64,000 nt of DNA, taken from IMG/VR virus record IMGVR_UViG_3300033056_000001, positions 1 to 64,000 of that record; one strand, 5' to 3'. Within the stretch, counting starts at the first letter, position 1, and the number at the start of each line of letters is the position of its first letter. Positions 1-55,885 of the stretch are shown here, one piece after another. This DNA comes from a virus. Position numbers and translations under genes: made by a program. A model generated the notes under the pieces. The model was not told the DNA's origin. It saw only the letters and a program-made list of their open reading frames with translations, and searched no databases.

Positions 1-1012
1 GAGTTATATTATCGGATTAGATCACGGAAACGGCTGGGTAAAAGCGAAAACTGCATCGAATGAATTAACGCTTCCATCTTATTATGCGAAATTAGAAACA
101 GTTAACGAAGGCTACGGAAACAATAAAATAGAAGTAAAAGAGTACGAAAGTAACATTTCGAAAGGTGAGAAATTCGTCTGGGGCGAAGAAATAAACCGCA
201 TCGACCACGTAGTTCCAACTTACGGCGCGCAAGATCGCTACAAACAAACGCCATACCGTCTGCTTACCGAATTCGCACTCGCAGAAGCAGCGTCTAAAGA
301 AGGTGACGCAATCTCGGACGTAATGGTCGTAACTGGCGTACCGTCAATCGAAAAAGGCACCGACTCAGAAAAAGACCTCATCAACGTAGTGCGCGGCGAC
401 CACCTCGTCAATATCAACGATAAAGGAATCATCTTACGCGTATCAGACGTTAAAGTCCTTCCGCAGCCGGTAGGCGTTGTAATGTCTGAATACCTTGACG
501 CAGACGGCTTCGTAGAGGACGAATCGTTTGAAACGGATAGCGTGGCCGTCATCGACATCGGAACGGGTACAACGGACATCGATCACGTTAAATCGCTCAA
601 ACGTCAGAAAGGCGACTCTGATTCGATTCTGCTCGGCATGAACGATGTTTACCGCCGTGTGGCCGACTGGATCAATTCGCAAAACCCATCGGCGCGCGCG
701 ACGGCCAGCAAAGTCGAAAGTCAGTTCGCGAATGACAGCTACGTAATCTCTAAACGCTCAGTAATCGAAATTGACGACATCAAAGAGCGTTCACTGGACG
801 AAGTGGCGGCCGAGTTAAAGACGGAAATCATCGGACGATGGAAAACGTGGGAACGATTCGACCGCATCTTACTAACTGGCGGCGGCGCGACGCAATTAGG
901 CCAACGCTTACAATCGCTTATTCCTGACGCTGAAATCGTTAAGAGCCCGCAGACGGCCAACGTAGAAGGTTTTTATCGTTATGGTAAATCGCTAGTAGGA
1001 GACGATGAGTAA
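1..1012 (+). CDS. Actin-like DNA segregation ATPase (ParM/Alp family), 5' end truncated by window edge
   Basis: The frame of ORF 323..1012 stays open back to nt 2 (SYIIGLDHGNGWVKAKT...). Actin-fold signatures present: GLDHGNG (phosphate 1), VIDIGTGTTD (phosphate 2), ILLTGGGA (adenosine). Stop overlaps the start of a small RHH gene (TAATG), as in parMR loci. Confidence 0.75.
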   Translation, partial: SYIIGLDHGNGWVKAKTASNELTLPSYYAKLETVNEGYGNNKIEVKEYESNISKGEKFVWGEEINRIDHVVPTYGAQDRYKQTPYRLLTEFALAEAASKEGDAISDVMVVTGVPSIEKGTDSEKDLINVVRGDHLVNINDKGIILRVSDVKVLPQPVGVVMSEYLDADGFVEDESFETDSVAVIDIGTGTTDIDHVKSLKRQKGDSDSILLGMNDVYRRVADWINSQNPSARATASKVESQFANDSYVISKRSVIEIDDIKERSLDEVAAELKTEIIGRWKTWERFDRILLTGGGATQLGQRLQSLIPDAEIVKSPQTANVEGFYRYGKSLVGDDE

Positions 1013-1284
1013 TGGCGCGTAAAATTTATCAACTTTCGTATGACGACGAATTGGACCACGATATTGTGGCGTTGTTTGAGAAACTCGATAAGCTGCCGAA
1101 GGATCGCAAGTCGGAGGCGGTGAGGTCGGCATTACGTATGTATGCGGATTATATCGGAGATTCGCCACGGTTATATTTTCCGCAGGTGAACTTCGGGCAG
1201 GCGCCGACGGCCGTTCCGGTTGAAGTGCCGAAGCCAGAAAAGAAAAAGAAGAAACGACCAGGATTTACGGGGGATGACTTTTAA
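1012..1284 (+). CDS. ParR-like ribbon-helix-helix centromere-binding adaptor (putative)
   Basis: 90 aa. RHH pattern: beta strand KIYQLSY, helices DHDIVALFEKL and RKSEAVRSALRMYA. Basic/acidic C-terminal tail KKKKKRPGFTGDDF. Translationally coupled to the ParM-like gene. Confidence 0.5.
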   Translation: MARKIYQLSYDDELDHDIVALFEKLDKLPKDRKSEAVRSALRMYADYIGDSPRLYFPQVNFGQAPTAVPVEVPKPEKKKKKRPGFTGDDF

Positions 1285-1473: not shown

Positions 1474-1501
1474 CAAAAGAAAAGACGCCGTTTCAGGCGC
1501 C
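1474..1501 (-). terminator. Intrinsic terminator after the replication-relaxation gene
   Basis: Minus strand reads GGCGCC-tgaaac-GGCGTC followed by TTTTCTTTTG. Overlaps the stop codon. Confidence 0.55.
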
Positions 1502-2139
1502 TAACCAATTCGTATAGATATTCCATCGTTCTTAGGTTTCGGCTTCGTGGCCGCCAATAACTCGGATACGTCTTTCGTTTGAATAATACGCACGTACTCG
1601 CTGCTCACGTTGTATTTATGGTCGGCGATAATCCAAACGGCGGGGAATCGTTTTACCTTAAACGGTAAGCACTCACGCCATAGCTCCGACCGTGCGAACG
1701 CCTCATACCTGGCGATTTTCTGCTGCATGACTCTCGCCGTGTACCGCGTATTCTGAACCTCCGCGAAGAAGGCGGAACCGCGCCAGAACATGCAAATGTC
1801 CGGCCGTACATCTACGTTAGGGAATTGCGACTCAACAGCGAAATGTTTCAGATCCTTCTCGCCGTGGCCGCGCAGTTGAAGGTAGAAATCGGTGATTTTA
1901 AGGAAGTGGTCGACTTTTTGTCCGTTGGTTTTAATGCGGGCAGGTTTCGGAAAGTATACGTAAGGCTGACGGTTAGTATCAGCCTCGACATATCCACGAT
2001 CGCGCAGCCGTTTTAATACTTCGTTTGCATGGCGGATAGGATTCTTTGTGTCGGCGAAAAAGAGGGCCGCCAGCTGGTCACGCGTCATTGCGCGGAATTG
2101 TTGAAGCGTAGAGATTATTTCGAGGTCACGTTTTCTCAT
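1501..2139 (-). CDS. Replication-relaxation family protein (wHTH N-terminus)
   Basis: 212 aa. N-terminal pattern RDLEIISTLQQFRAMTRDQLAALFF...LKRLRDRGYV is typical of the Replic_Relax family. Overlaps the upstream FtsK-like gene by 4 nt, a pairing known from Gram-positive plasmids and phages. Confidence 0.65.
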   Translation of the reverse strand: MRKRDLEIISTLQQFRAMTRDQLAALFFADTKNPIRHANEVLKRLRDRGYVEADTNRQPYVYFPKPARIKTNGQKVDHFLKITDFYLQLRGHGEKDLKHFAVESQFPNVDVRPDICMFWRGSAFFAEVQNTRYTARVMQQKIARYEAFARSELWRECLPFKVKRFPAVWIIADHKYNVSSEYVRIIQTKDVSELLAATKPKPKNDGISIRIG

Positions 2140-3347
2140 TCGGATTCATCCTCCCAGTTTTCATCGTCTTGCCCGAAGATATTATCGGTGAGTTTTTTGA
2201 GGTCCGGCTCGGCGGCCGGCGGAGTTGGCGTCACATTCGTCGCAGACTTAGGCGCTCGCCAGTAAACGTTCAAAAGTTCCTTCGCCACGTCTAAATCGAG
2301 GTATGGCGCTTTGAGCTCGGTATTCTCGCCGCGGAAGTCGATTATAAACTGACCGCTGCTTTTAAGCTTCTCGGCGCCTGGCGTTTCGAGTATCTCGGCG
2401 CTAGTTTGATTGCGTACTTTAAAGCCCATACTTACGTCAAGACAATCACGAAGGGTAGTATCGATAACTTTATGCGAAGGGCGCTGCATCGATAGAATGG
2501 CGTAAATTCCAAGCGCACGGCCCATCGCTACCAATTCGATTAGCTTGGCGTTGAGCTCTTTGTCATCGCGCAGCATTACGTATTCGTCGATACATAATAG
2601 AATATAAGGTTTGCGGTGTTCTTTCGGCAGTTTGTCGATGTGGTCAATTCCGAAGACTTCGAGTAGTTTGGTGCGGTCGATCATTTCGGCGTGCAGTTCG
2701 TCAAGAATACGATTGGCGCCGCGTTTGTCGCTTTCGAGTGCTTTCGTATGTTGGATATTACGGAACAGGTGAAACTCCGACCGTTTACAGTCGATGAGGT
2801 ACAACGAAAGCTCTGACGGCTTTTTCGTAAGGATGAGCGTTGTTAGTATAATGCGTAGAATTGAAGACTTACCGGAGCCAGGGACGCCGCCGATGACCGC
2901 ATAAGGATTCGTAACCATATCATACGTAAACCATTTGCCGCGCTTATCTTTGCCGCAGACAATCGGCATTTTCTTGCCGTGGATCTCACGCATGAACTCG
3001 CCGTAGTTATAGTCGATTGTGTTTTGGTTGCTGCGGTTAAATATCGTAAGCGTGAAAACCTTATCTTCGCCGGATAACTCGATGTTGCCACCGAACGACT
3101 GCCGGAATACATACTCGCGCTTACGGAGCTCATCTGGCGAGTATCCCAACGGAATTGAAAACACATACGTAAATGTTTCCGATTCAGTGTCCGGCCGCAT
3201 ATCAAGTAGGCGAGGGTACTGGCGAATTTGCTTGCCGCCGCTGTTTTTATGTGCGATGTAAATGCCGCCTGCATTGAACGCCCGTTTTAACGCTCTACGC
3301 GCCATTCTCAGCGTTTTCTTTTGCGCTAGATAGTTACGTATACTCAT
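2136..3347 (-). CDS. FtsK/SpoIIIE-family DNA translocase ATPase
   Basis: Walker A GGVPGSGKSS, Walker B ILLCIDEY, and the FtsK-type motif GRALGIYAILSMQRPS. Start moved to Met58 of ORF 2136..3518: GGAGG lies 7 nt upstream and an ATGA overlap joins it to the preceding membrane-protein gene. Confidence 0.85.
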   Translation of the reverse strand: MSIRNYLAQKKTLRMARRALKRAFNAGGIYIAHKNSGGKQIRQYPRLLDMRPDTESETFTYVFSIPLGYSPDELRKREYVFRQSFGGNIELSGEDKVFTLTIFNRSNQNTIDYNYGEFMREIHGKKMPIVCGKDKRGKWFTYDMVTNPYAVIGGVPGSGKSSILRIILTTLILTKKPSELSLYLIDCKRSEFHLFRNIQHTKALESDKRGANRILDELHAEMIDRTKLLEVFGIDHIDKLPKEHRKPYILLCIDEYVMLRDDKELNAKLIELVAMGRALGIYAILSMQRPSHKVIDTTLRDCLDVSMGFKVRNQTSAEILETPGAEKLKSSGQFIIDFRGENTELKAPYLDLDVAKELLNVYWRAPKSATNVTPTPPAAEPDLKKLTDNIFGQDDENWEDESE

Positions 3348-3661
3348 CCGACTAACCTCCATAAGAACGCCATTAGAAAGCCGAAGAATGTGACGGGCAT
3401 TAAGACGTTGGCGGCACCGGCGATTAGTTCCGCAGCTTGGGACGCGCCTCGGCTGGCGAAGTGATTTTCGAGAAGGTTGGATATTATCGCGGTCAAGCCG
3501 ACTGCTGATACGAGCCAATATGCGCCTGCAATTTCGGGAGACATGCTGAAAAATCCCGCCCAGGTGAATCCGAAAGAGTAGATCGGTGCGCTAATTTTTC
3601 GTGGCTCATGACGATAGTTTCCAGACATAAAATCGTTGAATTTAATCGTTTGTACTTTCAT
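3344..3661 (-). CDS. Membrane protein, first gene of the FtsK-like operon
   Basis: 105 aa with 2-3 hydrophobic helices (FGFTWAGFFSM, AYWLVSAVGLTAIISNLL, VLMPVTFFGFLMAFLWRLV). GGAGGT RBS. Translationally coupled to the downstream gene. Confidence 0.5.
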   Translation of the reverse strand: MKVQTIKFNDFMSGNYRHEPRKISAPIYSFGFTWAGFFSMSPEIAGAYWLVSAVGLTAIISNLLENHFASRGASQAAELIAGAANVLMPVTFFGFLMAFLWRLVG

Positions 3662-3680
3662 TGTACATACCTCCTAATTA

Positions 3681-3758
3681 TACGTGTTGCTACACGGGTT
3701 TTAACACGGTTACTACTTACACGTGTTTACAAGCGTGAACAACAAGCGAGAGAAAGCT
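3681..3758. repeat. Iteron-like array of five (T)ACAC(G/A)(G/T)GTT repeats
   Basis: Copies: TACGTGTT 3681, TACACGGGTT 3691, TAACACGGTT 3702, TTACACGTGTT 3718, CTACACAGGTT 3748. They lie in the divergent intergenic region between the FtsK-like operon and an HTH gene. Confidence 0.6.
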
Positions 3759-3931
3759 ACACAGGTTCTGTTAGGAGTGAAATGAAGCGAGAGTGGAATG
3801 GAACGACGATAGCTTTAAAATACTATATGGGCGTAGGGTTGGTTATGTTTACGGATTTTTGTAATTTCGTGAATAATTTCCGTAAAGGTTGGCGAGGCTG
3901 TTGCTAACGAAATCAAACGGAGGTAATTCGA

Positions 3932-4156
3932 ATGTGGGGCTTGGGTAAGAAACGAACGAAGCTTGGTCGATTTTTAGATAAGAAAGGTCGTACGCAGAAT
4001 GAACTTGCGAAAGCTGCAGGCGTAAATAAGGAGACGATTAGCCGAGCGTGTAGCGATCCGAACTATTCGCCGACGGTCAAGACGTTGAGTAAAATTATGA
4101 AGGCGTTGCGGAAGTTAGATCCGAATGTAAAGGCGGAGGACTTTTTCGATTTATAG
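3932..4156 (+). CDS. XRE-family helix-turn-helix regulator
   Basis: 74 aa. HTH segment RTQNELAKAAGVNKETISRACS. GGAGGT RBS. Divergent from the FtsK-like operon across the iteron array. Confidence 0.7.
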   Translation: MWGLGKKRTKLGRFLDKKGRTQNELAKAAGVNKETISRACSDPNYSPTVKTLSKIMKALRKLDPNVKAEDFFDL

Positions 4157-4159
4157 ACA

Positions 4160-4205
4160 AAAAAAATAAGCGCCCACCCTACGAAAAGGTGAGCGCCGTT
4201 TTGTT
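4160..4205. terminator. Bidirectional intrinsic terminator
   Basis: A-tract, then GCGCCCACC-ctacgaaaa-GGTGAGCGC, then TTTTGTT. Serves the convergent genes 3932..4156 (+) and 4204..4620 (-). Confidence 0.6.
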
Positions 4206-4620
4206 AGCCGAGCATTGCCGAAATCATTACGTATTGTTTCTGGTCGCAGTGTATATGCAGTTTACACTCAACGCCATCTTCGCCGACCAGATAAACGAAG
4301 GCTTTCGATGTGTCTTTACGTCGTCCGCCGACCGCAGCGCCAGCGATTCCGCCTAACGGGCCTGCTACGATTGTCCCCGCGATTGCTCCGCCAGCCGCCT
4401 TGCCTGCGCTACGTTTACCGGATTTCGCCCATTCGATTCGCGCCAACTGCCAGCGCTTTTTATCTGCGAAAGGTAACTCCGTAATAACTTCGCCTGGCTT
4501 ATCGCCTTTGACTAGGTTTGCATTGCGAATCGGCACCGGAATGTGCTTATCTGTTAATACGTGTCCTCCGCTCAAAATATTAAGTTGAATGCGCTGACGA
4601 AACAATTCTTTCCAACCCAT
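4204..4620 (-). CDS. Glycine-zipper membrane protein, function unknown (stand-alone unit)
   Basis: 138 aa. Central AGKAAGGAIAGTIVAGPLGGIAGAAVGG glycine-zipper segment. GGAGGAG RBS. Own TATAAT box upstream and own terminator downstream. Confidence 0.5.
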   Translation of the reverse strand: MGWKELFRQRIQLNILSGGHVLTDKHIPVPIRNANLVKGDKPGEVITELPFADKKRWQLARIEWAKSGKRSAGKAAGGAIAGTIVAGPLGGIAGAAVGGRRKDTSKAFVYLVGEDGVECKLHIHCDQKQYVMISAMLG

Positions 4621-6620: not shown

Positions 6621-7937
6621 ATGAAAATATTAGTTATATTTATCTTGTACTTTTTGATTTTTGCATTTTGGAACATCTTTTTTGCCAAAAGAGATAAATT
6701 TAAAAATTTGTATTTAGTATTTTTCTTGTTCTTATTTAGTTTCTACCTATCTACTCCGTATTATCAAATAAATCTAGATGGTTCAAGGGAAAGCGCATCG
6801 TTACATACTGTTTTCGTAGCCTTGATTGTTTGCTTGTTTTTTGTCGCAAATAAAAGGGTTCTTAAACCAGGAAAAGAACTGATATTATTTATCCCTATAT
6901 TCTTCCAAGCTTTAATTACTGTGTTATACTTTAAGTTTAGTAATATTGCGGATGTCTTTGGTATTTTAAATGCTTATATAAGTATTTATCTGATTATCCT
7001 TATATATCGGAGTGTACCCAATATAGATATTAACAAATTTTTATACAGTATAAACTATCTAGCTTTGGTAAACGGAATTTTAGGTATGGCTCAATACATA
7101 ACGGGCAAAAGTTTATTGATCGGAAGTTTCAATAGTTCAATTCTTTATACAGAAGGTATGGTAGATATAAAACGTGTCATAGGATTAGCAGGAGCTAATA
7201 ATGCTGCCGGTACTTTTAGTGCTATACTTTTCGGCGTTGTCTTGTATAATTTACTAAAGAAGCGAGATATTCTAAGCTTAATAACCTTAATTATAACGAC
7301 TGTATTTGCTGTTTTAACTTTCACTAGGGTTGGCTATGTCGCTATTTTTGCAGAAGTTTTAATTTTTTGGTTTTTATACAAACCGAAAACAAAGAGAACT
7401 CAGTTTACAAAAATAATTTCGTTTTGTTTTGGCCTTCCTATTATAGTAATCGTCACTAGTAGTTTCGTTTCAGGCCTAATTAATAAATTATTTACGGAAC
7501 GTGGTGATACGTCCTCAGAAAGATTTAGGCAATTCCAAAGGGCATATGATTATGTTATTTCTAACAATTGGTTTTCAGGAATAGGAATAGGTCAATATAA
7601 ACCATATCTACTCAATAACTACCGAATAGCTGATTTACCAATACACTCTCAATACTTAAATGTTTTAGCAGAACAAGGAGTACTTATCTTAATTGTTTTT
7701 GTCCTCTTTAATTTCACGATAATTTACAAGATACTTAGAAACAAACACATAGATAAAGATTTAAAAGTACTAACAGTGGCGATTTTTTCGGCAAACTTTA
7801 TGTGTTCTAACTTTAACCCCAACCAATTTTATTACATGAATAACGTGCTTTACTACATTATTATGCTTGGTTTATATTTTTACGCGAAAAGATATAAAGT
7901 AGCGCCTTTGGATAAAGAGTTAAAAATAGCAGCATAG
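6621..7937 (+). CDS. O-antigen ligase/polymerase-like (Wzy_C family) polytopic membrane protein
   Basis: 438 aa with about 10-12 TM helices. Wzy_C-like motif region: FTRVGYVAIF ... PIHSQYLNVLAEQGVLILIV. Very AT-rich (roughly 25-30% GC by eye) compared with its neighbours. Opposite strand, with its own promoter and terminator. Confidence 0.75.
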   Translation: MKILVIFILYFLIFAFWNIFFAKRDKFKNLYLVFFLFLFSFYLSTPYYQINLDGSRESASLHTVFVALIVCLFFVANKRVLKPGKELILFIPIFFQALITVLYFKFSNIADVFGILNAYISIYLIILIYRSVPNIDINKFLYSINYLALVNGILGMAQYITGKSLLIGSFNSSILYTEGMVDIKRVIGLAGANNAAGTFSAILFGVVLYNLLKKRDILSLITLIITTVFAVLTFTRVGYVAIFAEVLIFWFLYKPKTKRTQFTKIISFCFGLPIIVIVTSSFVSGLINKLFTERGDTSSERFRQFQRAYDYVISNNWFSGIGIGQYKPYLLNNYRIADLPIHSQYLNVLAEQGVLILIVFVLFNFTIIYKILRNKHIDKDLKVLTVAIFSANFMCSNFNPNQFYYMNNVLYYIIMLGLYFYAKRYKVAPLDKELKIAA

Positions 7938-16809: not shown

Positions 16810-17477
16810 TAAGGAATCACCAACTTCATACCGGCTTTGAGTCGATTCGGATTCTTACCGATTGTCTTTTTATTAGCGTCGTAGATTGTGCGCCATTTCT
16901 CGCCATTACCATAGTAGCGTTTCGCGATAATAAATAAGCTATCGTTCTTCTTAACGGTGTATGTGCGCTTCTTCGACGAGGTAGTTGTCGTCTTTTTCTT
17001 TGTGCTTGGCGGACGTGTCGCTTTTGGTTTCGACGTAACCTTCGTAGTTTCGTATCGAACTGGCAGCCATTTAAACTGCTTTAGCGTAATAGAGAAATAG
17101 ATGTCGCCACGGTTACCCGCACGTTCTACTTCGTAAGTGAAGTCGCGAACTGTTACGAGATAATTAATTTTCGAGCCAGTTACGATAAAGCGAATCGGCA
17201 ACTTACGGTCGCGCCACTTTTCGATGATTTCAACGTAAGTATAAGGCGCCTTGAATCCGCGATATTCGCAATATGATTCGTTGTAGTTTGCCGGAAAGAA
17301 CGTACCAAACGAAAACTCTTTAAGTCCACGATCACCGAAGATAGTTACTTCGCCGAGGTTAGCGACCGTTACATCGTTGAATCCAAACGGAGAAGTTACG
17401 TTGAGTGTGTCGGGATTGACCGGCAGTCGCACACGTTCGGTATTGCGTTCATTTGTTAACCAAAACTCAATTGCCAT
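16809..17477 (-). CDS. XkdP-like tail protein with C-terminal LysM domain
   Basis: The C-terminus YTVKKNDSLFIIAKRYYGNGEKWRTIYDANKKTIGKNPNRLKAGMKLVIP is a LysM domain. Located after the tape measure gene. Confidence 0.8.
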   Translation of the reverse strand: MAIEFWLTNERNTERVRLPVNPDTLNVTSPFGFNDVTVANLGEVTIFGDRGLKEFSFGTFFPANYNESYCEYRGFKAPYTYVEIIEKWRDRKLPIRFIVTGSKINYLVTVRDFTYEVERAGNRGDIYFSITLKQFKWLPVRYETTKVTSKPKATRPPSTKKKTTTTSSKKRTYTVKKNDSLFIIAKRYYGNGEKWRTIYDANKKTIGKNPNRLKAGMKLVIP

Positions 17478-19318
17478 TATGCGCCTGCCTCCCCTGCTAA
17501 GTAGATTTTTCGTGCTAGTGCTGACGCTAGTTTATCAACGTCTGCATCTTCGCGGATCGTTGTTCCGTTTAAGTTGATCGTTACGCCTCCACCTGTACCT
17601 TTCGCGAATTGGCGGTTTTCCTTCTTCGTCAAGACACGCTCGCCCTGGTGAAGTCGGTACATCATACCGTTACGTGGTACGTACGATTCGCCGTGGTAAG
17701 ACGATTTGTTTTTCTTCGACTTTGACTTCGACGGCCCCATTCCGGCTTTTGTGCTTGCGACACTTGGCGCTTTGAAATTTGGCATCTTAAACGACGATAC
17801 TGCGCTTGTGAACGCGTGGAATCTACCTTTAACTTTATCGATTACATTACCGATTGCGTTAAACGCTGAGGTACCTACCGCTTTGACTTTATCCCAGTTT
17901 TGACAAAGTTTAATACCGGTTGCGATAAGACCTCCGATAGGTCCGGAGAATGCTAGTATTTTCGTAATGAGACTTCCGAATTTAGACCATAATTGCTGTG
18001 CCTTTGCCTTAACGGTATCCCAGTTACGATAAAGAGCTACACCAATAGCTATCAAGGCTGCGATTGCTGCGATTACTAGTCCGATAGGGTTAGCTAGTAA
18101 AGCGACGTTGAATCCCATTTGCGCTGCGGTTGCGAGTAACGTTCCGGCTCGATATGCTGCCATTAACGTATTAATAGTTTGAATAATCGTCAGTGCCGCC
18201 ATTGCTCCACGGAAAACAACTACTGCAGTCGTTACGCCGACAATCGTTTCTTGTACAAGTGTCCAGTTTTGAACGATGAAATCACCGACCTGTTTCGCTT
18301 TGTCGTACATGAACTTTAACGCGTCACCAACCGGCGCCAATAACGATTGTGTCGATTGAAAATTCGCTTTAATCGTAGGCCAGTTCGTTTTGATGTAATC
18401 GGAGAACTTCGCTGCTTCAGCGCCGAGGAACGAGAACGCTGTACCCATCGACTTGAAGAATCCGTCTAGTGCTCCGTCACTGACCGCGTTTTTAATATCA
18501 ACGATAATCGGTTTTAGCGACTTCAACGCCTCGAAACCGACTGCTCGGAATTTCATCGATAGAGCTTCTTTAATCTGCGTAATGTATCCTAACGACGTGC
18601 TACCCATCGCGGTTACGAGTTTGTTCGTCATACCCATTTTGTTGTACAACTTATCGAGTTCTTTTAACTGCTGATCTAACGGAAGGTTCTTGATGTCGTT
18701 CAGCGCTTTACGCGGCATCTCGAATCGCTCAACCATCGACTGCGTATCGCCGCTCATTAACTCCTTCATCGCCATTACTGCGCCTTCAACACCCTGTTTC
18801 GGATCTACTGCGAGTAATCGTTCCGTTAAATTCCATATTTGTTCGAGTTGCTTAACATCCTTCGTCTGTGAGATAAACGATTTAGAATTCGAGAACATTT
18901 CCGATGAATCTAAAACGGGGGATTTGATTGCGAACGAGTTTAACATTTTCTGATAGTCTTTTGAAAGTTTCTTATCGTCAAACATTGCGTCGATAGTTAC
19001 TTGCGATTGTTCCATTTTCATCGCTTCGCCGACGGTGGCTTGCAACGTTTTATAAGCGCCTGCTGCCGTTATTACTCCTGCGGATAAAGCTCCGATACTC
19101 TTCAACGCTGAACCTGCGCTACTGCTAAAGTTAGATAAACCGCCAGACGCACCGTGTGTTGATCGTGTAAATCGACCCATCGAATCGTGCAATCGACCGT
19201 TAGCGTCACGGAAAGTGTTGGCTGTCCGCTGTGCATTTCTAAGAGAGTTGTTAACGTTGCGCAAACCACGCGACATATTATCTCTAAGCGTTAAGACTGC
19301 GGTTAAATCGTACGCCAA
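17477..19318 (-). CDS. Tail tape measure protein
   Basis: 613 aa, helical, with a hydrophobic glycine/alanine-rich central segment. TTG start preceded by GAGAGGAGG. Follows the chaperone frameshift pair. Confidence 0.85.
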   Translation of the reverse strand: MAYDLTAVLTLRDNMSRGLRNVNNSLRNAQRTANTFRDANGRLHDSMGRFTRSTHGASGGLSNFSSSAGSALKSIGALSAGVITAAGAYKTLQATVGEAMKMEQSQVTIDAMFDDKKLSKDYQKMLNSFAIKSPVLDSSEMFSNSKSFISQTKDVKQLEQIWNLTERLLAVDPKQGVEGAVMAMKELMSGDTQSMVERFEMPRKALNDIKNLPLDQQLKELDKLYNKMGMTNKLVTAMGSTSLGYITQIKEALSMKFRAVGFEALKSLKPIIVDIKNAVSDGALDGFFKSMGTAFSFLGAEAAKFSDYIKTNWPTIKANFQSTQSLLAPVGDALKFMYDKAKQVGDFIVQNWTLVQETIVGVTTAVVVFRGAMAALTIIQTINTLMAAYRAGTLLATAAQMGFNVALLANPIGLVIAAIAALIAIGVALYRNWDTVKAKAQQLWSKFGSLITKILAFSGPIGGLIATGIKLCQNWDKVKAVGTSAFNAIGNVIDKVKGRFHAFTSAVSSFKMPNFKAPSVASTKAGMGPSKSKSKKNKSSYHGESYVPRNGMMYRLHQGERVLTKKENRQFAKGTGGGVTINLNGTTIREDADVDKLASALARKIYLAGEAGA

Positions 19319-54697: not shown

Positions 54698-55885
54698 TCA
54701 TTTAGCGAATTGCCCGTATACCGCCTCTGCCACAGATTTTAGAGTTTCGGATTTTCTTAGCTGTTCTAACGGTAGTTGCGCAAAGAATAAATCACCGACT
54801 TTCAAGAATTGGCTTAACGATTTAAACAGCATATCACTGTCGTTAGTGGCTAACCCTTTGTAATAGAAGTAGTACATCGCTTCTTCCGCTTCACTAACTT
54901 CCTTTTCGATAATCTCTAGGGCTTTACCTTTATCGCCCCATTTTGCCTCATAATGCGCAATTACTACCGGTACGCCTTCCGTAACCTTTACTCCATGGTG
55001 CGCGTCTAAAAACGGGAGGAACCATCGTTCTAACTCGTCAGCAAAACCTTCGTAATTAGCTTCGCGGTAAACATCGATCGCCTGCTTCGTATTTAGCACG
55101 CTCAGCTCGTAGCTTTCGAATGTAAACGACGTTCCTAATAGATAATACGAATTCGCTTTAAATATCGCACAAATATCCTGTGAAATATTTTTTGTTGCGT
55201 GCTCTCTTGCCTTTTCTACGTCTGCCAATACGTATAAAAAGCGTTTCCCTAATAGATCATTGAGCCTTACCTCAAAAGACATTCTGAAAAAGCAATCTTT
55301 CAAATTATACACGTCTTGTTCAATTTCATCACATATCCTAGACATAGTATGTAGATAAGCTGCTGATGTTGAAAGTATTCTATAACATACGTTAGCCTCT
55401 ACTAAGTTTAATAATAGTTTCATCTCACTGTCGTTTGTAGACACTTTTCTGACTTTATCTAACATTTCTTTATTTTTTATTTCTCCAGCTTCGTAGCTGG
55501 ATATCATTCCGTAAAGAGCACCCCAACGTTTTAAATTTTTATTTGTTGAAGTATCAACCTTTACTTTAATATAGTCATTTAAGACATCTAAATTTTTGTT
55601 TAGAGATAAGTACTCCATCGCAGCTTTTATATTTTCAGGTAACTCTAATTTGTATGCCCAATCTATAAGTTGAACATCGTCCTTAAATAAACTTCTTGAT
55701 ATTTTATAGAGTTTACAAAAACCAGGCTCCACTCCTTCATATAGGTATCTTCTCATAGTTCTAACATCTACTTCTGCAATTCTAGCCAAATCCTTAACCG
55801 GTATATTTTCTTCCAAACAATCCAACATTGTTTCAAGTGCGTTCCCGATCAATCGCAACACCCTTTCGAAAGTGCCTGCCAGCAT
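54698..55885 (-). CDS. aimR: AimR-like arbitrium receptor / transcription regulator (N-terminal HTH plus TPR-like helical repeats, RRNPP-type)
   Basis: 395 aa. HTH IPVKDLARIAEVDVRTMRRYL. All-helical body. The C-terminus YYFYYKGL...FLKVGDLFFAQLPLEQLRK resembles SPbeta AimR (from memory). The true start may be an internal TTG near 55852, preceded by GAAAGGG. Confidence 0.8.
   Translation of the reverse strand: MLAGTFERVLRLIGNALETMLDCLEENIPVKDLARIAEVDVRTMRRYLYEGVEPGFCKLYKISRSLFKDDVQLIDWAYKLELPENIKAAMEYLSLNKNLDVLNDYIKVKVDTSTNKNLKRWGALYGMISSYEAGEIKNKEMLDKVRKVSTNDSEMKLLLNLVEANVCYRILSTSAAYLHTMSRICDEIEQDVYNLKDCFFRMSFEVRLNDLLGKRFLYVLADVEKAREHATKNISQDICAIFKANSYYLLGTSFTFESYELSVLNTKQAIDVYREANYEGFADELERWFLPFLDAHHGVKVTEGVPVVIAHYEAKWGDKGKALEIIEKEVSEAEEAMYYFYYKGLATNDSDMLFKSLSQFLKVGDLFFAQLPLEQLRKSETLKSVAEAVYGQFAK

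Follow-up and report, generated by a model that had tools for sequence, protein, structure and literature searches.

We describe here a three-gene operon lying on the minus strand near the start of a 64,000-nucleotide window of viral DNA (IMG/VR record IMGVR_UViG_3300033056_000001), the window being the first 64 kb of a complete circular phage contig of 66,323 bp. The operon encodes a small membrane protein (OrfA), an FtsK/SpoIIIE-type ATPase (hereafter FtsK) and a Replic_Relax protein (hereafter RR), and the reading that we favor, to which we would assign a probability of roughly 40%, is that these form a DNA pump that is expressed in the mother cell of a sporulating host, is specific for its own replicon, and carries that replicon into the forespore. 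This work establishes the gene identities, the integrity of the motifs, the domain architecture, two cis-elements together with their statistics, and the distribution of the cassette. By homology the cassette is a "DNA translocation operon" of the type named by Pathria et al. in 2012 for orf200/201 of phage 0305phi8-36 and for loci in SPO1, GBSV1 and Gamma/Wbeta (PMC3357382), and the same trio has been noted in DLc1 (PMC7695010), in Andromeda-like phages (PMC9658697) and in 268TH007 (PMC9476937); direct sequence matches were obtained here to GBSV1, Gamma, Wbeta, DLc1 and 268TH007. An earlier note on this DNA had described such genes as annotated and unexplained in other phages, and while they are indeed unexplained, the cassette itself has been on record since 2012. 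The accessible text of the earlier cassette papers gives no cis-elements, promoter or specificity code, no paper was found that reports either the SpoIIID geometry or the helix-repeat pairing described below, and no functional study of the cassette was found in a literature search whose coverage excluded most subscription papers.

The first cis-element is a putative sporulation-type promoter. Leaders of the cassette share a GACAA-containing box that stands 7 nt ahead of a CATAnnnT-type element, a motif which was first spotted by eye and then retested with matrices derived solely from B. subtilis data, namely 18 sigmaK promoters that had been mapped and five footprinted SpoIIID sites (PMC517825; sigmaE and sigmaK share the -10 element). 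Among 28 combinations of spacing and orientation, only the forward box at a gap of 7 was clearly enriched, with 13 of 39 leaders scoring above the 95th percentile of the controls (p = 2e-4). Held-out leaders gave 5 of 25 in 320-nt windows (p = 0.02) and, in 700-nt windows (a size picked after matches further upstream had been seen), 9 of 25 against 5% of controls (p ~1e-5); the -10 matrix by itself showed no enrichment (p = 0.15). A plasmid leader fetched later (L125) scores 15.8 and has repeats directly behind its -10, and the -35 position of the 18 strong sites is occupied by AC in six and by ATA in another six. The window's own copy was assigned by alignment to stronger copies in loci L002, L005 and L006. 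A sigmaA reading, with the GACA box as a -35 element on either strand, was rejected as the matching -10 is not conserved, although a 9/12 sigma70-like match overlaps the site in the window and such a reading is possible for that copy. At the level of the family, these observations suggest that the leader carries a sigmaE/sigmaK-type promoter combined with a SpoIIID site. The idea of a role in sporulation, which the earlier note had offered as speculation, thereby gains indirect support, from this mother-cell-type promoter and from the restriction of the cassette to spoIIGA-positive genomes.

The second cis-element is an array of short repeats just upstream of the ribosome-binding site of orfA, with units at 3718, 3703, 3691 and 3679 (spacings of 15, 12 and 12). 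Nowhere else in the genome is the motif so densely clustered; five of only eight copies lie in the leader, and on that count a genome-wide use resembling FtsK-orienting polar sequences (KOPS) or SpoIIIE recognition sequences (SRS) was rejected. The window array is significant against shuffles (p = 0.01), and arrays of the WAC-N4-GTW frame at p<=0.05 occur in 22 of 46 leaders where about two would be expected, in a set that includes near-identical loci. The inner bases of the repeats vary in step with RR residues 31-40, where the recognition helix is predicted. Between the window and loci L004, L005 and L007 the repeat core differs, and while FtsK is 94-95% and the RR nuclease domain 90-94% identical, RR residues 27-41 are only 47% identical; in L004 and L007 the final 100 nt of the leader also fall to ~60% identity with the window. 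Conversely, L002 and L006, whose FtsK proteins are just 51-52% identical to that of the window, have the same helix and the same repeat core. A partial Mantel analysis over 22 loci, which are not independent of one another, places the peak within RR at residues 31-40 (r = 0.36, permutation p = 4e-4). The divergent helix-turn-helix (HTH) protein encoded nearby was considered as a reader of the repeats and rejected, as it is identical in L004 despite different repeats and as DLc1 has six repeats and no such gene. An SOS box carries a flanking G and C; these are missing here, and a LexA box was rejected.

Between the promoter and the array lies a pyrimidine-rich tract, a candidate cut-site region that we regard as a weak lead: similar tracts are found in 8 of 41 leaders versus 13 of 186 controls (p = 0.03), the window's own tract falling below the cut-off. 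Tracts with a strand skew of purines and pyrimidines were seen, in either orientation, in the window and in L005, L024, L029, L070, L123 and L126; a CGCTCC-like core is common in them, and they may be cut or loading sites.

RR, the protein with which the repeats co-vary, is recognized by the profile PF13814 (E = 2.5e-13), and its predicted structure, with a predicted local distance difference test score (pLDDT) of 93.5, includes a winged helix (match Z = 10), in agreement with the earlier description of the third gene as a Replic_Relax winged-helix protein. The C-terminal domain gives weak Foldseek matches (E ~2e-3 to 5e-2), mostly to PD-(D/E)xK nucleases, and bears the residues H78, E103, P113-D114, E127-x-Q129, K141 and Y145, among which H78, E103, D114 and E127 are conserved at 94-100% down to 20% identity; no solved structure could be matched to RR by sequence. 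PF13814 denotes the MobC relaxase family (PMC5357655), and in a six-sequence search the RR family profile matched a true MOBC relaxase, that of plasmid pH308197_29, from end to end (E = 3e-11), so that the earlier statement that no canonical relaxase is present needs amending: the third gene encodes a MOBC-like nuclease, a relative of the relaxases. The pH308197_29 protein carries an E-x-E..K..R-Y motif with Tyr at E+11. This MOBC motif, with a Tyr 11 residues after the first Glu (Y181 of TraX), was reportedly defined by Francia et al. in 2013, and that Tyr is said to be the proposed catalytic residue. RR has E-x-Q instead of E-x-E, with Q129 present in 43 of 43 close homologs, and a Tyr at E+11 is absent in homolog set A1 and not among the eight commonest residues in set A3; given these two departures, RR is, as judged from its motifs, a MOBC relative and not a motif-complete relaxase. 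Many RR proteins also have a conserved C-terminal tail with a G-I-x-I-x-I-G strand (window 1504-1530, minus strand), a possible docking peptide.

For the second gene, the earlier assignment of an FtsK/SpoIIIE ATPase with intact motifs is confirmed by a match to PF01580 (E = 4.5e-23), a profile found in 30 of 30 members of the family. A RecA-like beta domain with Walker A and B, an arginine finger and the QRP motif are all present, and 30 homologs show little or no variation at Walker A, D186-x-K188, Walker B (D254-E255), G276-R277 and Q288-R289-P290. A longer open reading frame (ORF) from a TTG at 3518 was considered and found unsupported, the homologs starting at the ATG at 3347. The model (pLDDT 84.7, with a disordered acidic tail at 369-403) most resembles TcpA (6o1w, E = 1e-22) and the FtsK motor (6t8o, TM-score 0.70 over 384 columns) in Foldseek; the alpha domain ahead of the beta domain is indicated by matches of 384-396 columns to FtsK motor domains at a TM-score of ~0.70, while the Pfam FtsK_alpha profile gave no match. 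Neither the sequence nor the model contains a transmembrane segment or a gamma winged helix. The model is closer to TcpA and to the whole FtsK alpha-beta motor than to EccC or HerA, and a type VII EccC/EssC identity was rejected, as those systems have three ATPase domains in tandem, a transmembrane anchor and WXG100 substrates, whereas there is a single ATPase domain here, scores lie far under the cut-offs and the structural match covers the beta domain only. By analogy with these motors, FtsK may assemble into a hexameric ring that translocates double-stranded DNA. A complex prediction for FtsK with RR gave a median of 0.24 and was not used for or against any reading. The conserved tail of FtsK contains an acidic F-G-x-x-D motif (window 2139-2200, minus strand), possibly a docking peptide as well.

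The three genes are joined by overlapping ATGA junctions, as previously noted, and both overlaps, like the coordinates given before, were confirmed. The first, orfA, encodes a membrane protein, though not the many-pass one proposed earlier: hydropathy reveals two moderately hydrophobic segments, at approximately residues 45-63 and 81-99, which form a hairpin. Profile searches with OrfA returned no Pfam or NCBIfam match, and the TrbC Pfam profile matched neither OrfA nor four homologs, TrbC/VirB2 pilin being the label of the membrane gene in PMC9658697; its Atlas neighbors are unnamed Bacillota clusters. In most related loci either a small transmembrane gene or a hydrophobic N-terminal extension of FtsK precedes FtsK, and since several relatives carry such an extension on FtsK itself, OrfA probably anchors the ATPase at the membrane. 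Phage SP-15 (L011, 3548-5551) has a small membrane gene and a longer FtsK of 544 amino acids, with no adjacent RR.

Table 1. Features of the operon, its leader and its surroundings (window coordinates).
Feature	Position	Strand	Basis
ParM-like actin and ParR-like adaptor (1012-1284); context, outside the core cassette	1..1284	+	PF17989, NF010498, NF010497
Intrinsic-terminator-like hairpin, operon end	1483..1502	-	sequence
RR (Replic_Relax), 212 amino acids (aa): winged helix 1-69 and PD-(D/E)xK-type nuclease domain	1501..2139	-	PF13814, alignments, model
FtsK/SpoIIIE/TcpA-type ATPase, alpha and beta motor only, 403 aa	2136..3347	-	PF01580, motifs, model
orfA, 105-aa two-helix membrane protein, probable separate ATPase anchor	3344..3661	-	hydropathy; anchor role inferred
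Four quasi-palindromic 10-bp repeats, WAC-N4-GTW frame; probable RR binding site (predicted)	3679..3727	-	motif density, covariation
Fifth repeat unit, detached	3758..3767	-	core switches along with other units in L004/L005/L007
Tract rich in pyrimidines; weak candidate for a cut-site region	3774..3809	-	leader alignment
Predicted mother-cell promoter: AC at -35 (3848-3847), SpoIIID-like box 3846-3837, sigmaE/sigmaK-type -10 3829-3822	3822..3848	-	homology to stronger copies
Cro/XRE-type HTH gene, divergent, common cassette partner	3932..4156	+	PF01381, E = 3e-10

From these parts we infer the binding, cutting and pumping of DNA, together with their timing and destination. Once the asymmetric septum has formed, sigmaE or sigmaK polymerase with SpoIIID would turn the operon on in the mother cell. 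The winged helix of RR would then bind the leader array, marking the DNA of the element and probably also autoregulating the promoter, and the RR nuclease domain would nick or cut nearby to create a loading point. The alpha-beta ring of FtsK, held at the membrane by OrfA and devoid of a gamma domain of its own, would use RR as its sequence reader and pump the DNA, most likely into the forespore, such that copies stranded in a mother cell about to lyse would be rescued. We favor this destination since the mother cell lyses and any element left in it is lost; the loss of plasmids at sporulation is large, and actin-type partition repairs it only in part (in one case raising spore retention from 18% to only 58%; PMC4615649).

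The proposed pump can be compared with several known machines. SpoIIIE/FtsK and Streptomyces TraB combine an N-terminal transmembrane domain and a C-terminal gamma winged helix in one polypeptide. The cassette resembles them in its predicted hexamer-type double-stranded DNA motor, which would depend on an anchor and on a winged helix that reads the sequence, but anchor, motor and winged helix reside on three polypeptides, the winged helix carries a nuclease, and the site is one clustered array, in contrast to dispersed KOPS/SRS. With TcpA (of pCW3, of ICEBs1/Tn916 and of streptococcal integrative and mobilizable elements) it shares an alpha-beta FtsK-like motor without a gamma domain, but differs in that its membrane part is a separate gene and in that the relaxases known to work with TcpA are of MOBT, MOBM or Rep-like type and not PF13814 proteins. 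The MOBC modules (pAD1 TraX/TraW, CloDF13 MobC/MobB) likewise combine a winged helix with a PD-(D/E)xK fold, repeats near the genes and an adjacent ATPase; apart from the motif differences in RR described above, their partner is of VirD4 type and that of the cassette of FtsK/TcpA type, and the cassette coexists with a true MOBC on one plasmid. The operon of Pathria et al. likewise has a MobC-related nuclease adjoining a translocase that lacks transmembrane segments and a separate membrane protein, and was non-essential in the laboratory; the 0305phi8-36 version differs in having extra genes.

The main rival to forespore import is export or mobilization, in which the leader would serve as an origin of transfer (oriT), RR would act as a relaxase of the MOBC-like type, and FtsK, in the manner of TcpA, would be the coupling protein that passes the phage or plasmid DNA to a helper conjugation channel or pumps it to a neighboring cell, possibly as an escape before the mother cell lyses. 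This was the proposal of Pathria et al. (PMC3357382), and the full-length homology of RR to the relaxase of pH308197_29 and the TcpA-like structure of FtsK are as this proposal would have them. The layout of the leader is, moreover, that of TraX, whose winged helix binds five direct repeats at 70-120 bp from the nic site (PMC12857230) and so provides a precedent for the five-repeat leader here. As regards an oriT, the five repeats co-vary with the RR helix, while no nic site was located in the leader and no significant hairpin was found there (z = -1.0). We nonetheless consider transfer unlikely, if the strongest of the alternatives. No genes for VirB4, a cell-wall hydrolase or a channel adjoin the cassette, either in this window or in the annotated phage loci (the rest of the genome had no specific VirB4 search), the partner of MobC in streptococci is VirD4 and in no case TcpA (PMC5357655), and RR departs from the relaxase motif at the two positions noted above. 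The cassette is furthermore present on linear phages with terminal proteins, and three non-phage plasmids that carry it are typed as conjugative, with a relaxase and mating pore of their own; pH308197_29, with a true MOBC, VirD4 and VirB4, has still kept the FtsK-RR pair. Retention on plasmids already equipped with a relaxase, VirD4 and a mating pore speaks for import into the forespore. Just upstream of the trio on another non-phage plasmid, pBM400 (L120), is a Hydrolase_2 cell-wall hydrolase gene (17446-17886).

RR matched 26 records of phages and 345 of plasmids; where these are annotated it almost always adjoins FtsK, and the plasmid hosts are all Bacillales spore-formers. In a sample of 401 Bacilli genomes, 272 of them spoIIGA-positive, RR-like matches occur in 22, all spoIIGA-positive, and in none of the 129 spoIIGA-negative genomes (Fisher p = 4e-4). 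The trio is present in temperate phages, in the phi29-like lytic phages DLc1 and Bfsp1, and in non-phage plasmids, and, with integrating Wbeta also among its carriers, the link drawn earlier to a plasmid-prophage lifestyle does not hold for the family. Of 40 loci, 10 have a ParM-like gene within 6 kb and 25 have a divergent HTH gene within 700 nt, though DLc1 and Bfsp1 lack the latter. Close RR homologs without FtsK or OrfA exist at L069, L103, L106, L107, L109 and L121 (pBTI-6), several of them followed by an HTH gene; at these solo loci the promoter motif was not seen at the 7-nt spacing and no array was clear.

These data bear directly on a role in vegetative maintenance, in which the operon would clear plasmid-prophage DNA from division septa or aid dimer resolution with an Xer-like recombinase and ParMR. 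Such a role has been adopted in PMC9658697 and PMC11526630, and is in keeping with the nearby ParM-like genes and with promoter-proximal 12-bp repeats that resemble the layout of partition operons. However, 30 of the 40 loci have no ParM nearby, lytic phi29-like phages carry the cassette without any plasmid stage, and neither the mother-cell-type promoter nor the lack of matches in the 129 non-sporulating Bacilli searched would be expected, all of which makes it very improbable in our estimation. Hardly less so is a weapon, that is, a membrane-tethered nuclease-translocase complex that destroys competing DNA, whether incoming or in the mother cell, with the repeats a mere operator. ATPase-nuclease pairs are common in defense, the cassette sits beside the lysis genes as a moron might, the nuclease residues of RR are intact, and in PADLOC the FtsK domain matches the SspH and mad8 models. 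PADLOC returned nothing for RR and OrfA, however, and no described defense system was matched in all components; the fold is nearer to FtsK/TcpA than to HerA, a defense gene would be expected to be on in growing cells, and a winged helix that reads a site in its own DNA would sooner point to the processing of self DNA.

The cassette is dispensable for plaque formation. Phage 268TH002, which lost the trio when a 9-bp microhomology gave rise to a deletion, forms plaques all the same, and in 0305phi8-36 deletion of the cassette caused no growth or plating defect (PMC3357382), which supports an accessory module for the processing of DNA that, as the earlier note held, serves neither the virion nor lysis. 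The 268TH002/007 difference was also considered as the insertion of an element and this was rejected, as the deletion keeps the divergent HTH gene and no mobile-element ends were seen. Such losses, and the existence of RR genes without FtsK, might be taken to indicate a neutral or selfish passenger of no benefit to the element that carries it, yet the catalytic residues are invariant across 20-40% overall identity, the promoter geometry is conserved and the 268TH002 event is a microhomology deletion; we find this the least credible of the explanations, and highly improbable.

Several observations weigh against forespore import itself. The window promoter is a degenerate copy (score 8.8 versus a control threshold of 10.6) and has an AC of sigmaK type, and sigmaK acts after engulfment, which is late for import into the forespore. 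The promoter or the array is found in only about one third to one half of leaders, neither is clear in those of Wbeta, Bfsp1 and pBM400, and a leader fetched later (L126) has the array without a promoter at the fixed spacing. In the covariation scan, FtsK residues 46-55 (r = 0.47) rank above the RR helix, and the sharpest switch of helix and repeat is a single event. The restriction to spore-formers is confounded by phylogeny. A protein of two helices is not known to serve as a channel through two septal membranes, such that a host channel would be needed, and integrating prophages should enter the spore with the chromosome in any case.

The phage itself has ParM-like and ParR-like genes (the start of the former wraps around the contig end), an AimR gene and, as to recombinases, one short Xer-like protein of 200 aa, with no serine recombinase found; from this complement it is likely a plasmid prophage. 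Among its annotated relatives, the cassette is closest to that of the Priestia aryabhattai plasmid prophage pG5MAi6_3, whose RR is 75% identical. The AimR arbitrium receptor (54698-55885, minus strand; NF038310) occurs in a phage with ParMR in which a full-length integrase was not found. Upstream of ParM, a 306-aa ORF without Pfam or NCBIfam match (contig 64922-65842, minus strand; L124:2923-3843) is a candidate plasmid replication or immunity gene. Between the lysis genes and the HTH gene lies a 138-aa protein with a glycine-zipper-like stretch (4204-4620, minus strand; phrog_37056), a homolog of which holds the same position in L007. A 438-aa membrane protein with an O-antigen ligase/Wzy_C domain (6621-7937, plus strand; PF04932, E = 4e-15) is encoded antisense between the holin and tail genes and may be a surface-glycan moron.

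As a gene cluster alone, the cassette is ordinary. Several hundred plasmids and phages of the Bacillus type carry it, however, its function has been open since 2012, and known partition systems account only incompletely for the entry of extrachromosomal DNA into spores. With the predicted promoter and the helix-repeat pairing, the question of function becomes experimentally specific. One could go further and postulate a hitherto unrecognized kind of inheritance system: a machine resembling SpoIIIE/TraB but split among several proteins, turned on by the mother-cell program of the host, which would recognize its own replicon by a diversifying helix-repeat code and with which plasmids and phages, both temperate and lytic, of spore-forming Bacilli would pump their DNA into the spore after the septum has closed, although we hold this broader proposal to be rather doubtful. 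Should the favored reading of a pump into the forespore be true, it would explain why conjugation-like genes are kept even by lytic phages.

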